This document shows positions 53,971 through 61,063 of a stretch of DNA of 64,000 nt, one piece after another. Position numbers and translations under genes: made by a program. How positions within the stretch are numbered: position 1 is the first letter of the stretch; each line of letters starts with the position of its first letter. The notes below the pieces were generated by a model. That model made no database searches and was not told the DNA's origin. It worked only from the letters and a program-made list of their open reading frames with translations. Origin of the DNA: Curvularia clavata (lineage: Eukaryota); NCBI GenBank assembly GCA_023920165.1, contig CP089277.1:4030001-4094000 (forward strand). Direction: 5' to 3'.

Positions 53971-55909
53971 GCGACAACTTTTCGGAAGTCTTGAATTCCC
54001 CCCTCTTCAGCTCTCCCCCTTTGGCCTAGAGTCGCATCATTTGTCTTTTCTTGTTCCATCTAAACAACCTTAAGAAGCACTCCCTCGCAGCTCGGTCGCA
54101 GTTCAGGCGTTAGTATACCGGAATATCGCAAACAACTCGTGCTCAATTAGTCAGAATAGACCGGCTGGAAGCGGCCCTTCTGTCAGCGTCGAACTACGAA
54201 TGCCAAGCGGTGCTTGATGGCCCAAGCCGGCCATGCAGACAAAGCAGGTGCCAGAGTGAGATTTTAGGTCCAGTGACCCAGTTCTGGCACTAACAAGAGG
54301 CCGTCATCACGCAACGTCTCAGGTGTCGAGGTATGAAACCTTGGGGGCGGATGGTCACAGAAAGTCTCTGCTATCTTTCCCCATCTTGTTTTTCCTGCTC
54401 TTCGTCCGAGACGAAACTTGTTCTGTTTGCACTAACTGTTTGCTGTCGATGACATGCTACGAGACTCACGTCGCGGGACAAGGTTCACACTCGCGACCCG
54501 CTCATGGGCAACACTAACTGAGAACTTGAGACCCGGTAGTGTGGAGCTGAGGACCGGAGAGAAAGAGAAAGAGGGCTGCTGCGGGAACACGGTAATCGCG
54601 GGATTGACATCAAGATCCACTCGTTTGTGGCGCCGGTCCGGCCCATGTTCTGCAGGGATAACCTGGAGAATCAATGTACAGGTCCGGACGGCCATTTGAG
54701 TTTGCCGGAACGAATACATAAGTCTTTTTTTTCTTGAGCCTGTGTTTTTGACCAGAAAGAGTTTCCATTGGTGCATCAGGGTGCTGCAAAATGCCGGTCG
54801 CGGCGATAAAGGACGATCCAGGCGCAGGGCTGACACCTGACCATGGCCATGGGTGCTACAGTGAGTTTGAAGAGTGACGCTTGTCTCCCAGGGAGTGCTT
54901 GTATGGGTAGTGCAGAAGGGCTGATACCAAGACATTGTGGTTTCCAAGGAGAATACGACATCAAGGTAAAGAAAAGTCTGGGCGGACAACGCGGCGAGTG
55001 CACAAAAGGGCCAGGACCTTCCGGTCAGACGTCGGCAGTGCTGCTATGTCTTGCAGGGTGGTTGTGTTTGAGAGTTGGGTTGTGGCTGATGTTAGCTGGC
55101 GGCCTTGAAGCCCCGGCGTCCGGCATATTTGCCAGGCTACGGCTTTTGCTTCCAGCATGGAGCTCGCAGAAGCTGTCACAGGTACTGAACAGCTGCGAAC
55201 GACATGAGAGAGGTGTCCATCCTAGCCTCACCGCCCATTCGTCTGGAGCAGCCACGCACACATCCATCGGAAGGCAAAGACCGATGAGTGTTTCGGCGTC
55301 GCGACGATCGATGGGTGCCGCCCACACAATGCGCACCGTGCATCAGCTGTATACATGGATGGCCTGCTGTGTACAGCATTCACTCCCGGCGTGTGTACAT
55401 ACGTGTCGCTGATATGTGAGCAAAGAAACCAATAATGGAATGGGCAGAAGGGAGGGGGAGCTGTACAGAAAGGAGATGATGACATGGATGGGGCGAACGA
55501 ATGGCTCTGGCGCTAACGCCTCTGGTCGGGACTGGGGAGCAGGCGCCCAATCGCTTCCTTGACAGACTTTGGATATGGCCGCAATTCACGCCATGCACAA
55601 AGGCCGTGCCGGAGCAAGCCCATTTGCGCTCTCAACAGGCGCGTTCCGTCCAACTCAAGAAGCTTGCTGCCCTAGCTGCATAACTTCTGCCATCCTGAAA
55701 CGCTGCCTTTTGCTACGGGGCGCGGCGGGGCATTCTTAGTCCCGGACGCCTTCGAGACCTTCAAAACCACACTGACGCACTCCCCGATTTGCACAGCAGA
55801 CAAAACTCGCGCCGGCGCCTCGTCCTTCTCTCTCTCGTCGGCCTCTGGATGACTATGCAGCACGTATCTGGCCGCAACCGCACTTTCAATCGACCTTGGA
55901 TGTGACTCA

Positions 55910-58750
55910 ATGGCGAACAGCAAGTAAGTAGTCGTCCGGACTCCGACTCCGACGTGCGCGAAACAAGCGACTGACAGACGCCTAGATATGAATACGTGCG
56001 CTTGTTTGAGCAGCCCGACATCTTGCTGTCCAACACCTGGATAGTAGTGCGAATCGATGGCCGTGGCTTTTCAAAGTACGTCCACTAGACTTATTTCATT
56101 CTTTCTTGCTCTCCCTCACCACCTATTTGCTGGTGGGAATTCTGATTGAGCCAGCATATGCAGGTACCCGTATCCTGCGGCATAGCCTGAGCGTGCGACC
56201 TCAGGCCAGTAATTTTTTTGCTTATCATGATACAACATCCAGCTGATCTTGCTGACCCTATGCCACCAGATTTACAACCAAATATAACTTCACAAAGCCC
56301 AATGACCAAAATGGCCTAGATGTCATGAACGCCGCGGCTAAGGCTGTCATGCAAGAAATACCCGACCTTGTCCTGGCATTCGGTAACAGCGACGAATACA
56401 GGTAGGTTTGTGTTGCCTCATTGGCCTGCGCCACGTTTGAGGGAGATGACAGTTCCCTGGAGCTCAGGGCCGCCCGCCTCGTCTCTACACGGACAGCCGT
56501 CCGCGTTTCAAAAGTTCGTTCAGCTGACGTGGGCTGTAGTTTCGTCTTTCATAAGGACTGCACCTTATTCGAGCGCCGAGCAAGGTACGGAAGCCCTGTT
56601 ATTGGTGCACCTGCACCATGCCGCGGCATGCTATTCCAATACTGACCCGTCCGCAGCAAGCTGACCACGACAATCGTCTCGACTTTCACTTCCTACTATG
56701 TTTATTCCTGGTCTCAGTACTTCCCACAAAAGCCGCTCACGCCCCCTCTCCCTTCCTTTGACGGGCGTGCAGTCTGCTATCCAAGTGACGCTAATCTCCG
56801 CGATTACATGAGTTGGAGACAGGTTGACTGTAAGTACTGAGCGATACCATCGACTTTGCGTTATGCCGTTTGACTTCCTGCAATTTCGCAAAATCCACCA
56901 TCAGTGTCTGATCGACATGTAGGTCACATAAACAATCTATACAATACTACCTTCTGGGCCCTGGTTCAGCAGGGAGGCATGGGTCCACGTGAAGCAGAGC
57001 AAAGACTCAAAGGAACAGTGGCATCCGACAAGAACGAAATCCTGTTCAAGGACTTCGGCATCAACTACAACAACGAGCCCGAGTGCTTTAGGAAGGGAAC
57101 TGTGCTGTATCGAGATGTAGGTCATGTTTGATTTGTATTAACATATTGAAGCATGGCACCTAACAACAATAGTTCTTCCCGCCAGCATTGGCTCCCGAGT
57201 TGCCAACACCCATGTTCTCAGAATTCCCTACACCACCCCTTGCTCAACCAAAACCTAGGCGGGCGTCGAAAGATCAATCTCGGTCCATTGAAAAAATCAT
57301 TCCACTGATGCCAGAGTCGGAGGATTTTGTGGTGTCGCCTGATTCGTTTTCACGTGCAACATTTCTCTCGACGACATCGACTCCCTCACCGCCGCCATCA
57401 CCACCCACCATGTCGAAAGGAGCATTCCCCAACCCGCTCCGGTCCAACCCTATCAGCAGCCGAGGTAGCCCTAATGTCCCTGATAATTCTCTTCCGCTCT
57501 CGCCGCCCTCGACTGCCACTTGGGCTACCAAGCCACATTCGAATGGCAAGCAGCCACTGCCCTCTTTGACACCTCTGCCTCTTTCCCCACCGACTTTAAA
57601 ACCGAGCACCAAGCCTCCATTGTCTCTGAACGCACCAAACCCAACAACACGCACAAACTTCTCACCGACGACACCACAGCACGACTTCCCTCCTGACTTT
57701 CCCGTTACGGGATACCGCCATAAACAAACGGCATCACTCAGTCAGGGCATCTCGCACTCAGCTTCCGCTTCTCTCTCTACACCACCGCCGCCACCACAAG
57801 ATCAGCAACATGGACTCAAAAGACGCTCACCCAGCCAGCCAACGCTCCCTACCTACGTCAACTCGAGTTCAAGTAGCAGAAGTACTACAGGACCACCGTT
57901 CATACCTTTGCGTATGTCAAGTATTCCCGCCAACAGCAAGCCTAGGAAACTATCGCTCTCTGTCCAACGGTCAACAAGCACGCTGAGAGCCACGAGGGAT
58001 GCCATTGACGGAACGGAGGGTGGTGCAGGTCCTAAAGAAGCAACTTCAACCCCGCCGCGCCGAGTCAGTCCACCAATGCAAAAGAACAAGGCTCTACCAA
58101 GCCCCCCAATGAGTGCAGAAGAGGAAATGCGTACAAGAGAGAAAGTCAAAGCCAGCAGCCCCCAACTCGACTGGAACAATTACAGCATGGCCTCCAATTC
58201 CAAAGACCCGCCACTGAGGCGAGCAAGCGACTCTGAAAACCAAAACAGCTACTGGACCACCAACGTCTACGCTCCCCACCCAGGCATCGCCGAACTTCCC
58301 GCCATCTCAACCGTAGCGACCGCCTCCGCCCCGACAACCGCAAAATCCCCCCTCACCTCATCATCTCTCCAATACCCTCCGGACATGCCTGCCCTCAACA
58401 CGTCTACCGCACCTGCACCAAAATCCCAGCCTTACCCCACAACACAGCCTTTCCCCAGCAGCATGCCCATGCGTAGTAACCTTCCTCTAAACCTCAAGCC
58501 TAAAGATTCAGTCTTGCCCAAACAACCGAACGACTCGCAGAAGCGGCGGCAGCCCGAGACGTCAGCAACCAAGAAGAAGGCCGAGGCAAGCACGGGAGAT
58601 GAGGGCCGCCCTGTCACTATGAGTCGTACGCAGCGCGAGAAGGATAGGAAGAAGAGGAGTAAAGCGGCGGTTCTGATGGAGCATGTGGATATTATAAAGG
58701 ATGAGTTTTGGGAGAAGAGGCCCTGGATATTGAGTGGGAAAACGGGGTAA
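55910..58750 (+). CDS. THG1: tRNA(His) guanylyltransferase Thg1 with a very large low-complexity insertion (7 exons, ~741 aa)
   Basis: Exons 55910-55923, 55986-56075, 56270-56401, 56540-56584, 56657-56829, 56923-57116, 57173-58750. [68 protein letters not shown]-tail [18 protein letters not shown]. Confidence 0.93.
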
Positions 58751-59553
58751 AGTGCGATAGCACTTTGGAACCTGAGCGATTTGGATGGGTTGTCGGGATG
58801 AACAACTCGGAGTGGTTTGATGTAAACTCTTTTCTTTGATTTCTTTCTTGAGCAATTACTTGAGCAGACCTGAGGGGTGAGCGTTTGCCCTCGGGAAGAG
58901 TGGCGCTCTTCACTCCTTTTCTTTCTTTTTTTACCAACTTTTTTTGGGCTGATGATGAGAGGATACATGGAATGAAAAAGGGGTAATTTTTTCCAGAGAA
59001 AAGGCGAGAATATATGTACGAATGGCATTTGTTGCGCATGTCCACGCTCCTTTACTACCTTGGATTAGGGTGGCTTGATAGGGGCATTACGTAGGAAACG
59101 TGTGGATCAGGAAAACCAGAAATAAAGAGTATATCCATATGTCTTACTTATTGGGGGTATATTGTAGCAGAATTTCTATGATATGCAATTCCCTCGTATT
59201 CTCTATCCGGGCCATTTCTCTACCCGATTCTAATCTTTGGCCAAGCCTTTTTCTCACCGCATCTATAGGCGTTTGACTGCACGGTTGCCGTTGCACCCAC
59301 AATGGTTAGTTGTTTAGTCAGACCATCTTTATTGTTGCTTCATGGAGTCACCGCCCGCTTGCCTGCAGACTAGACTTTGCTTAATGCTCTCGCACACGGG
59401 TGGTCATGTGCTGCTTCAAGCAGTGAGCTGGGGTGCGCAGAGACCCTCAATGTCCCGTATAATCCAGGTGCATGATGCGCTTGGCATAAGAATGTGTGAA
59501 AGTACACTTTCTGCCACCCTGTCTCTCGTATTTGGGAAAATTGAACTCTTCGT

Positions 59554-60316
59554 CTATTGCTTGCCATTCTTCTTCTGCTTCTTATCCGCCTTTTCCTGTT
59601 TCTTGGCCTTGGCTGCATCCTTGTCGCTCTTCTTCTCAATTCTACGGAGAACATATTGCTCAAGGGTCTGGCCCTTTGCCGCGGCGCGAGTCTCGTACTC
59701 AGCCTTCTCGGCAGGTTTCAGCTTCGCAAGCTTCTTTGCAACGATATCCTTTCCATCGCTGCTATCTTTGGGTTTCAAAGTTTTCCGAGATGACTCCGTC
59801 TTGCTCTTCTTGCTGATCTCGATCTCTGCTCCCTCCCGCTTGCGTTTGTTCTTCTTGTCGGATGATTTTGTAGGCGCTTCCGTATCGGAGGCAGAGGTCG
59901 GGGGCGTGCTGGTGCCGGATGAGGGGTTGGATGCGTCCGTAGGGGTTGCTGATGTGTCACCGATGGTTCCCTCTATTTGCTCGCCCTTGACGAAGAAGCC
60001 GTATAGGCCGCCACGGTTGATACCCTTGGTGCGGATCTGGTCGAGCGTGCTCTGTGCAGATAGTTAGCCAGAGAATCTTCCTCATGCGATGCCGGGCGCA
60101 TACGTCTTTTCCAGTGCCGATGCTTTGCAGACTCTGGTCGAACGCTCGCATCCACCATTGGTCGTCTGTTGTATGCGCCGCCTTCTTTTTGCCAAGTCCG
60201 AGCTGGTCGTTCTTGTGCGCAATAAGAAGCGGCTTCTTGATTCCGCGCCCGTTTGTGTCGAGCGAATGGCCGGAGCCTTGCCAGCCCTGCTTGCGCAGGT
60301 ATGCTTCGGCGTTCAT
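59554..60316 (-). CDS. G-patch-type, Lys-rich nucleolar protein (TMA23/PinX1-like), 2 exons
   Basis: MNAEAYLRKQGWQGSGHSL...GIKKPLLIAHK..LGLG..DQWWMRAFD|..GGLYGFFVKGE; Lys-rich C-terminus. Confidence 0.85.
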
Positions 60317-61063
60317 TGCTGGTGAAGATGAAAGGAACACGAGGGTTCGCGCCAGGAAATTTTGGTGGGGAAATTCTGGGCGTTAGCGCGCGCGTTGCAA
60401 TGCGGACCCCGGAGCCGCATCGTCTGTGTGCGGGCATTGAAGCGCCCATTGCTTTTTTCTTACACAAGGTAACTATAGAAATATGAAAAGGGCATTTGAT
60501 ATATTCTTGGGCATTTGCTCCTGACACTGTGTGCGAATGTTTCCCGCCCACACCCAAATTCTCCGATCCAACAGTATCTCTGCTCACGACACTCTGATGC
60601 GTCGTGCATCAATACCCACTCAAGCAAAAGAGGCAACTCAGAACTCTATATCATTTGTATTACGGCACTGCCGCTCGTGTAAGAATATGCTGAGTGTGAG
60701 AATGAGATATTTGTTTCTGCCGTTCACCCATACAAGATCCCAAGTTGAAGGATATGACTACTGTAGAGGAGAAGTTATTTAGTATCGTCTCACTTAAGAT
60801 TCATTCGGCTTTCTGCCAGCCAAAAGAGACTTTGAGAGTGCAGGTTTGTCAGCTTGAGCCTGGATGGCTCTTCTCTGATGTTGCCCAACCCCGTCGCCGT
60901 AGTGGCGCTAAGCCGACAAGAGTCTCCTTCCTCCTCTGATACACAACAGCTCCCAACAGTTTCTTTCCCTCTGTAGTCTGCCTTTGATTTTACTTCTGTC
61001 GGCCCAGCCTTTCCATTCCCCACTCGCTTCAATACGGTGCTAGTAGTCTACAACACAGTTAAC

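Follow-up and report, generated by a model that had tools for sequence, protein, structure and literature searches.

Thg1 is treated as a compact, highly conserved enzyme in the literature consulted here (the review PMC6471195). The canonical eukaryotic proteins of Candida albicans (3WBZ/3WC2), human (THG1L, 3OTB) and S. cerevisiae (5XOX) have the same catalytic motifs and C-terminal helix/strand as the protein described below, but the two parts are spaced differently. In the Candida enzyme 8 residues lie between the core, which extends to residue 222, and the tail, which starts at residue 231, whereas in the long form about 480-490 residues separate them.

Compact enzymes are also found in the sister orders of Dothideomycetes (Mytilinidion, 299 aa; Lophium, 274; Botryosphaeria, 296; Patellaria, 361), and their cores are 70-77% identical to the Bipolaris maydis orthologue P0002. 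At the site of the insert they carry a Pro/Ser/Ala-rich linker of about 45-125 residues without the motif islands of the long form. The core encoded in the window (the whole 64,000-nt stretch of Curvularia clavata DNA analysed in this work) shares 165/216 residues with Mytilinidion, the linker of which is identical to the window insert at just 9/32 alignable positions.

Long Thg1 proteins are present under automatic names in Bipolaris maydis (COCC4DRAFT_73194, 751 aa), Alternaria alternata (725 aa) and Parastagonospora nodorum (736 aa). These are orthologues with the same insert and motif islands and do not differ in kind from the window protein. The plant double Thg1 (about 500-580 aa) represents another route to long Thg1 proteins: judging from their doubled scores, the plant forms carry the entire Thg1 domain twice in tandem and owe their length to this rather than to a disordered insertion. 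The search for long forms covered the best 120 of 418 matches, mostly plant double-Thg1 proteins, and lower-scoring long forms from non-Pleosporales fungi are possible.

Gene structure and enzyme identity

The THG1 gene, coding for tRNA-His guanylyltransferase, consists of seven exons at 55910-58750 on the + strand. Its 2226 nt coding sequence specifies 741 aa and a stop codon, and every intron is of the GT..AG type. By sequence, the host gene is THG1 of a Pleosporales fungus near Bipolaris. The following features make up the gene:

55910-55923, 55986-56075, 56270-56401, 56540-56584, 56657-56829 and 56923-57116, + strand: exons 1-6, from the spliced translation
57117-57172, + strand: intron 6, 56 nt, GT..AG, located exactly at the core/insert boundary
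57173-58750, + strand: exon 7, 1578 nt, the insert followed by the Thg1 C-terminal tail
57173-58597, + strand: insert, ~475 codons, Pro/Ser/Thr-rich, predicted to be disordered, in place of the short linker of other Thg1 proteins
58598-58750, + strand: canonical Thg1 C-terminal tail, aa 476-525 of exon 7, with the stop TAA at 58748-58750

Exons 1-6 together encode exactly 216 aa, which end with GTVLYRD and form the catalytic core, i.e., the palm and most of the fingers domain (55910-57116, with introns 1-5). GTVLYRD is the last strand of the fingers domain, which other fungi connect to the C-terminal helix through a short flexible linker. The initial annotation had described a Thg1 split by a large in-frame Pro/Ser/Thr-rich segment, with a core assembled from six small exons with intact motifs, and the spliced translation reproduces this arrangement in full. 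Exon 7 is indeed open for 525 codons; since the remaining five frames of 57173-58750 contain 9-27 stops each, its open frame is not a matter of chance. The Thg1 tail is confined, as had been proposed, to the end of this exon, where the last ~50 codons align with Candida albicans Thg1.

All three motifs RIDGRGF, SDEYSF and HINNLYN were found in the spliced translation. The first two supply the metal-binding carboxylates, with HINNLYN as an additional motif. The core retains 62/62 invariant columns of the 57-sequence alignment A1. Identity to the B. maydis orthologue P0002 is 202/216 residues in the core, 350/470 in the insert and 43/51 in the tail. The Pfam assignment rests on this orthologue (PF04446, E = 6e-53, residues 6-136; PF14413, E = 6.7e-47); from the window, exon 7 alone was submitted, and its tail matched Thg1C weakly, with an E value (0.041) that misses the cut-off. 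The core of P0002 aligns end to end with the canonical structures (E = 1e-86 to 3wbz and 1.4e-82 to 3otb), corresponding to residues 4-222 of the Candida albicans enzyme, while residues 708-745 align to CaThg1 231-269, that is, to the C-terminal helix/strand. The helix and strand completing the fingers domain are predicted at pLDDT 71-83. On these grounds the protein can be assigned to the Thg1 family by its N-terminal catalytic domain, Thg1C domain and C-terminal helix/strand. As the catalytic core is unchanged, it should still add G-1 to tRNA-His.

Conservation of the insert

Exon 7 used as a query gave 110 database matches. Fifty-one proteins, all from Pleosporales-type genera, have 260-508 extra residues at the insert site, as measured by BLAST with core and tail matched separately against the 299-aa Mytilinidion enzyme. 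No clear loss of the insert was seen among 51 full-length Pleosporales proteins. The two short models in related fungi, from Lizonia (277 aa, partial, with a 20-aa linker) and Pleomassaria (328 aa, in a model showing other obvious splice errors), could reflect either genuine loss of the insert or introns introduced by gene prediction.

Across 46 aligned sequences, 18 columns of the insert show no variation and about 40 reach a conservation of 90% or more. The conserved positions fall into seven islands separated by variable spacers. The invariant columns include RSPS, IPLRxSSIP and the RK of KPRKLSL. Low-complexity sequence can inflate alignment identity; invariant residues other than Pro and Ser (F64, R218, I244, R247, R258 and K259) argue against such an effect here.

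The reading frame is open and collinear through the whole insert at five metagenome loci (L001, L002, L005, L006 and L007), so the open frame on which the initial annotation relied is conserved in relatives. Intron 6 is absent from L002, where the core and the insert form one uninterrupted ORF. Comparison of L001 and L002 by the Nei-Gojobori method (dS 0.97) gave an omega of 0.12 over the insert as a whole (0.024 in the islands and 0.16 elsewhere) and of 0.013 in the tail. Values of 0.12-0.16 over the whole insert indicate that the segment is read as protein. In the islands, 60/86 residues identical between the window and L006 are written with different codons. The omega of 0.78 for L006 vs L007 comes from a handful of changes at a dS of 0.011, which makes this pair too similar to judge selection. 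The dN/dS analysis left out L004, where the frame followed runs into a stop after 42 codons, and the short or partial L003, L008, L009 and L010; L009 was used in alignment A2 only.

Judging from these sequences, the insert is under purifying selection, which is very strong in the seven islands. The translated nature of the segment suggested in the initial annotation is in line with its retention in the 51 Pleosporales-type proteins together with the motif islands, and with the low omega (0.12 overall, 0.02 in the islands).

Composition and predicted structure of the insert

The first 480 aa of exon 7 contain 18.5% Pro, 15.6% Ser and 9.6% Thr (44% together), and K+R account for only about 11% of the insert. 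The islands and the single predicted helix are positioned as follows (aa numbering of exon 7):

57359-57406, + strand: island 1, aa 63-78; F64, S72, P73 and P74 invariant in 46 sequences
57554-57667, + strand: island 2, aa 128-165, Pro-rich; many columns conserved at 90% or more
57752-57775, + strand: island 3, aa 194-201, SHSASASL; conserved in the alignment
57815-57835, + strand: island 4, aa 215-221, LKxRSPS; RSPS invariant (46/46)
57893-57958, + strand: island 5, aa 241-262, PPxIPLRxSSIPxNxKPRKLSL; RKLS-type site in 45/46; includes the GTATGT at 57912
58067-58108, + strand: island 6, aa 299-312, SPPMxKxKALPSPP; conserved in the alignment
58115-58156, + strand: the sole predicted helix of the insert, aa 315-328, pLDDT 75-84; also predicted for the orthologue (H528-539)
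58277-58303, + strand: island 7, aa 369-377, HPGIAELPA; H369-L375 invariant among 6 sequences

AlphaFold2 models of the orthologue and of window exon 7 place the insert at pLDDT below 50 with no secondary structure except the helix at aa 315-328, and no Pfam domain was found within the insert. It is thus predicted to be intrinsically disordered apart from this short helix. A disordered insert with short linear motifs had been suggested initially, and both the models and the alignment agree with this; the three motifs named at that time, RRSPS included, are conserved.

Basophilic sites of the [RK][RK]x[ST] type occur 5 times in the insert vs 1.4 +/- 1.2 in shuffled sequences, and the basophilic serine sites are well kept: RSPS in 46/46 sequences, the RKLS-type site in 45/46 and the RRVS-type site in 37/45. 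No enrichment over shuffled sequence was observed in the insert for [ST]P, SH3-type or WW-type patterns. A tandem-repeat search returned just one 16-nt match in two copies, giving no sign of repeat expansion or recent slippage. A search of the ESM Atlas for look-alikes of the insert gave a best score of 0.85; all of these were "hypothetical protein" entries within the chance range and were not considered further.

Origin of the insert

Among 1.84 billion representative proteins, the insert profile found 30 matches and no non-Thg1 domain. Twenty of these were already among the Thg1 matches of exon 7, and the ten new ones comprise three with a Thg1 domain and seven that are domain-free. Outgroup Thg1 proteins (e.g., P0216) have a 45-60-aa Pro/Ser/Ala-rich linker at the insert site. 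Since the outgroup linker is already Pro/Ser-rich and the profile is confined to Thg1 contexts, expansion in situ fits better than the grafting of a module suggested in the initial annotation. We expect the insert to go back to the base of Pleosporales and to represent an enlarged version of this pre-existing linker, not a segment acquired from another gene.

Retention of the insert in mRNA

The X1 contigs skip introns 1, 3, 4, 5 and 6 at GT..AG boundaries and, lacking these five introns, derive from RNA. The 57116>57173 joint is present in X1 at a depth of 4.2, in agreement with the canonical intron annotated at 57117-57172, and an X9 contig (record 13) joins 57000-57116 to 57173-57500. An unspliced X1 contig over intron 6 (57087-57202, depth 5) is also present. 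One 3095-nt X1 contig spans 57173-59000 and beyond without any joint. Pieces of the insert are matched at 99% identity or higher in X15 and X16, two root metatranscriptomes with partial coverage of the insert, the uncovered parts of which carry no meaning. The insert therefore shares one exon with the tail and stays in the spliced mRNA; the expectation that the 1.4 kb belong to mature mRNA was borne out by contigs crossing exon 7 unbroken. The window and the run contigs differ at nine positions in exon 7 (five synonymous and four non-synonymous), too few to be weighed.

It was also suggested initially that the segment might be an exitron. On this reading, most or much of the 1.4 kb would be spliced from some transcripts, leaving a compact ~30 kDa enzyme for catalysis and a minor or regulatory long form. 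There are two strong-looking internal donors (57912 and 58626), 40 YAG acceptors and six in-frame pairs, some Alternaria database models are shorter (430-536 aa), as predictors sometimes splice part of the region, and contigs can miss rare isoforms. However, no internal joint within 57173-58750 was found in the assembled RNA contigs of any of the four runs, where five true introns were detected. All of this RNA evidence consists of assembled contigs, from which rare isoforms are dropped and which hold no strand or full-length information. The GTATGT at 57912 and the CAG at 58538-58540 singled out in the initial annotation both exist, but an intron running from 57912 to 58540 would be 629 nt long, a length not divisible by three, and the pair is therefore out of frame. 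Moreover, the GTATGT lies within the codons of the invariant IPLR[MI]SSIP, the donor GT is missing at 4/5 relatives' loci, and omega of 0.12-0.16 throughout the insert shows protein reading. Thus, the contig data showed no internal RNA junction, and the proposed pair has neither a conserved donor nor a length divisible by three; we regard an exitron as very unlikely.

Possible function of the insert

We consider it likely that the disordered insert is a Pleosporales linker expansion that gives an intact Thg1 a tethered platform made up of short linear motifs. Regulation or docking is the probable task of this arm, and the pattern of its conserved sites suggests docking regulated by phosphorylation. 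The invariant basophilic serine sites (RSPS, RKLS-type and R[RK]VSPP) together with Pro-rich segments would constitute the platform, on which kinases, phospho-readers or other partners could dock, coupling the activity, location or a second role of Thg1 to cell signalling. A more specific version is a tentative one: a Pleosporales-specific signalling hub on an essential tRNA-maturation enzyme, in which basophilic nutrient or stress kinases would phosphorylate the RSPS and RKLS-type serines, and phospho-readers (e.g., 14-3-3) or Pro-motif binders would switch Thg1 location or activity or recruit it to a non-tRNA role. A hint of such a role comes from the link of yeast Thg1 to Orc2 mentioned in PMC6471195.

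Harmless runaway growth of a low-complexity surface loop would account for an insert that has diverged much more quickly than the core (identity to B. maydis 74% in the insert vs 94% in the core), has a mean column identity of 0.39 vs 0.78 for the tail, varies in extra length from about 260 to 508 residues, and contains neither a domain nor a predicted fold. Such tolerated, functionless growth is nevertheless distinctly unlikely in view of the 18 invariant and about 40 nearly invariant columns across 46 sequences, the low omega both inside the islands (0.024) and outside (0.16), the lack of any clear loss among 51 full-length Pleosporales proteins, and the absence of a tandem-repeat signature of recent slippage. 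The insert might also act directly on the RNA substrate or on enzyme assembly, serving as an additional arm for binding tRNA or modulating the tetramer. Its point of exit is the fingers domain, which binds the acceptor stem and the anticodon according to PMC6471195, and its basic patches (KPRK, KKK) adjoin the basic tail; yet the insert is Pro/Ser/Thr-rich with few basic residues, its conserved islands are mainly Pro/Ser motifs and compact Thg1 proteins function without such an arm, so this role seems unlikely to us.

A gene fusion or a separate product, with exon 7 as an independent gene under its own promoter, is highly improbable. The mean depth of the X1 contig over exon 7 is 24 vs 6-8 for the upstream exons, but this 3095-nt contig crosses the convergent downstream gene, so the mean depth says little. 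Likewise, a large number of the ORFs called in metagenomes comprise nothing but exon 7, but come from callers unable to splice. The Thg1 tail ends the same ORF, L002 carries core and insert as a single ORF, and no host protein other than Thg1 was found with the insert profile. As for the downstream gene, its two ORF pieces gave no match in Pfam, and a resemblance to a G-patch protein was not supported by this search.

Significance of the long form

Since large disordered insertions are not uncommon among the housekeeping proteins of fungi, the long form is only moderately surprising unless a function for it comes to light. The long form is annotated in public databases across Pleosporales, in which sense it is already documented, as the initial annotation had allowed for; our literature search found no published description of an insert-bearing Thg1.

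The tripling of Thg1 length across an order, by a disordered arm with invariant motifs, implies an unstudied control layer or a second function of this reverse polymerase. Among the matches listed, neither plants, animals nor other fungi have the insert, so it can also serve as a lineage marker and a clean handle for genetic dissection. Pleosporales include many cereal and crop pathogens. If the signalling-hub reading were true, tRNA-His identity or a moonlighting role of Thg1 would be a regulated step across this plant-associated fungal order.

Gene model and the place of the insert

THG1 lies on the forward strand. All its introns are GT..AG and its 2226 nt CDS codes for 741 aa:

55910-58750, +, THG1 gene, seven exons
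55910-55923, 55986-56075, 56270-56401, +, exons 1-3
56540-56584, 56657-56829, 56923-57116, +, exons 4-6
57173-58750, +, exon 7

Exons 1-6 code for a core of exactly 216 aa, which carries the motifs [13 protein letters not shown] and HINNLYN and ends with GTVLYRD. Exon 7 is open for 525 codons, and the remaining five frames of the same stretch contain 9-27 stops. Its first 480 residues are rich in Pro (18.5%), Ser (15.6%) and Thr (9.6%), with C at 46% of second codon positions, and Pfam finds no family in the exon except a weak Thg1C match at its extreme end. Exons, frame, composition and Pfam agree, and the initial annotation, which described THG1 as split by a long in-frame insert ahead of its tail, is correct as written.

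The nearest database protein, the Bipolaris maydis orthologue P0002 (751 aa), is identical to the window protein at 202/216 positions of the core, 350/470 of the insert and 43/51 of the tail. Its residues 1-218 align with residues 4-222, and 708-745 with 231-269, of Candida albicans Thg1 in solved structures. In the Candida enzyme a linker of 8 residues bridges the final strand of the fingers domain and the C-terminal helix; P0002 has about 480-490 residues in its place. The spliced window protein retains every one of the 62 columns that are invariant among 57 aligned Thg1 sequences, and it is presumably an active Thg1.

Transcript evidence

Assembled contigs of four public sequencing runs were compared with the window over 55800-59000. 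Contigs of run X1 skip introns 1, 3, 4, 5 and 6 precisely at GT..AG, which indicates their RNA origin; one of 3095 nt starts at 57173 and extends beyond 59000 with no joints. X9, which derives from a close relative or strain, has a contig in which 57000-57116 is joined directly to 57173-57500, and two root metatranscriptomes (X15 and X16) cover parts of the insert with identity of at least 99%.

The insert had also been proposed to be an exitron or alternatively spliced segment, with a GTATGT donor at 57912 and a phase-0 CAG at 58538-58540. None of the four runs contains a joint within 57173-58750, at the level of assembled contigs, which are blind to rare isoforms, strand and full-length molecules. 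The putative donor is made of the codons CGT ATG TCA within the invariant motif IPLR[MI]SSIP, its GT is missing from four of five relatives' loci, and excision of 57912-58540 would remove 629 nt and break the frame. As far as these data reach, the insert is not an exitron.

Intron 6 (57117-57172) is also represented in X1 by an unspliced contig (57087-57202, depth 5) alongside the spliced joint (depth 4.2). If it were retained, translation would continue through [11 protein letters not shown] to a stop (ORF 56874-57131), giving a core-only protein without insert and tail; the contig may reflect plain pre-mRNA or regulated retention. For intron 2 (56076-56269) X1 has contigs that continue past the end of exon 2 (55986-56130) or enter exon 3 out of intron sequence (56166-56399), and none that splices across it, which may be due to poor splicing in the sample or to a break in the assembly graph. 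X9 skips 56077>56277 with 5 other letters between.

Mean contig depth in X1 is 24 over exon 7 (57173-59000+) versus 6-8 over the upstream exons (55800-57116). An internal transcription start may lie behind this, but the value is uninformative, as the 3095 nt contig spans the neighbouring gene. That gene (59554-60382, - strand; ORF pieces 59957-60382 and 59554-60063) lies downstream and is convergent, its 3' end facing that of THG1; its C-terminal half is Lys/Ser-rich, and no Pfam family was found in it at E <=0.01.

Conservation, selection and predicted structure

The window and 39 Pleosporales proteins, aligned with MAFFT, share seven high-identity islands amid a variable background (exon-7 residues 63-78, 128-165, 194-201, 215-221, 241-262, 299-312 and 369-377). 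Across 46 aligned sequences 18 columns of the insert are invariant (F64, S72, P73, P74, R218, S219, P220, S221, I244, P245, R247, S249, S250, P252, R258, K259, P311 and P312) and about 40 more reach at least 90%.

Exon 7 is open in full at five metagenome loci of relatives (L001, L002, L005, L006 and L007). L002 (2285-4072) lacks intron 6, so that exons 6 and 7 form one ORF in which HINNLYN, GTVLYRDFFPT and the insert follow without a break; in L001 and L005 the intron is at the same spot, judging from acceptor-like sequence directly upstream.

Omega (Nei-Gojobori) for L001 versus L002, the least saturated pair (dS 0.97)
Whole insert: 0.12
Motif islands: 0.024
Spacers between islands: 0.16
Tail: 0.013

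Between the window and L002 dN is 0.33, with dS saturated. Within the islands the window and L006 have 86 identical residues, and 60 of these use different codons, so the constraint acts on protein rather than DNA.

AlphaFold2 (57-sequence alignment) folds the P0002 core (10-residue block means 53-95, mostly 63-95, over residues 11-220) and predicts the tail as a helix and a strand (pLDDT 73-83). Residues 217-705 are without secondary structure, mostly at pLDDT <50, apart from one helix (528-539). The picture for window exon 7 (46-sequence alignment) is the same: one helix (315-328, pLDDT 75-84) is the sole element predicted in its first 475 residues. Spliced RNA contigs, island invariance, low omega and predicted disorder together bear out the earlier suggestion of a translated disordered module, here with motifs that are conserved, and the insert is very probably a translated, selected, disordered insertion.

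Distribution and origin

A database search with exon 7 gave 110 matches, the named ones all from Pleosporales-type genera: Bipolaris, Exserohilum, Alternaria, Pyrenophora, Parastagonospora, Plenodomus, Didymella, Melanomma, Massarina, Periconia, Lentithecium and Sporormia among them, as well as Zopfia, which NCBI places in Dothideomycetes incertae sedis. Against a compact reference, 51 proteins give separate matches for core and tail, and 260-508 extra residues lie between the two. The nearest compact Thg1s (proteins <413 aa, best 120 of 4753 matches) are held by other orders.

Compact Thg1 proteins
Mytilinidion (Mytilinidiales): 299 aa
Lophium: 274 aa
Rhizodiscina: 300 aa
Botryosphaeria: 296 aa
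Phyllosticta: 312-333 aa
Patellaria (Patellariales): 361 aa
Sordariomycetes: ~288 aa
Leotiomycetes: ~290 aa

Four short entries lie in or near Pleosporales. Two are fragments of the core alone (Ascochyta rabiei, 218 aa; Corynespora, 216 aa). The Pleomassaria siparia model (P0213, 328 aa) has 19 extra residues in the core, an obvious unspliced piece, and a linker that looks unrelated; the partial Lizonia empirigonia model (P0211, 277 aa) has 20 residues between YRD and the tail, through either real loss of the insert or a predicted intron. Both may be insert losses or annotation artefacts. The long-form search (best 120 of 418 matches) returned mostly plant double Thg1s and leaves scope for long forms in other fungal orders.

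The initial annotation had suggested an insert grafted onto the enzyme. An insert-only profile (window and five loci) found 30 matches at E <=0.001 in 1.84 billion representative proteins, 20 of them already among the Thg1 matches of exon 7; of the ten new ones three carry Thg1 or Thg1C and seven have no Pfam family, and Pfam found no foreign domain in any. No tandem-repeat signature was found in the insert, the Mytilinidion linker at the insert site is already rich in Pro/Ser/Ala, and the Patellaria protein is of intermediate length. These observations argue against a graft and suggest that the insert is an expansion of the linker that the enzyme already had, dating from near the base of Pleosporales.

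Proposed function

Long Thg1 proteins are already in databases as automatically named entries. In the searched literature, outside subscription journals and supplements, none of the papers listed deals with such a Thg1 insert in Dothideomycetes, Pleosporales or other fungi, judged by title and opening of the abstract, and the words "insertion" and "C-terminal" are absent from the available text of a review (PMC6471195). We regard the window THG1 as a variant within a known enzyme family, and the interpretation given in the initial annotation as partly supported.

The core would perform G-1 addition as other Thg1s do, and the insert has the anatomy of a disordered arm bearing short linear motifs. 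It contains five [RK][RK]x[ST] sites versus 1.4 +/- 1.2 in shuffles; RSPS is retained in 46/46 sequences, the RKLS-type motif in 45/46 and the RRVS-type in 37/45. Its [ST]P, SH3-type and WW-type patterns show no enrichment. The arm might instead act directly in tRNA binding or in assembly of the tetramer, an alternative that is still live: it exits the fingers domain, which according to the same review text binds the acceptor stem and anticodon (PMC6471195). The best reading, offered tentatively from the motifs, is that the insert may serve these fungi as a putative phospho-regulated docking arm.
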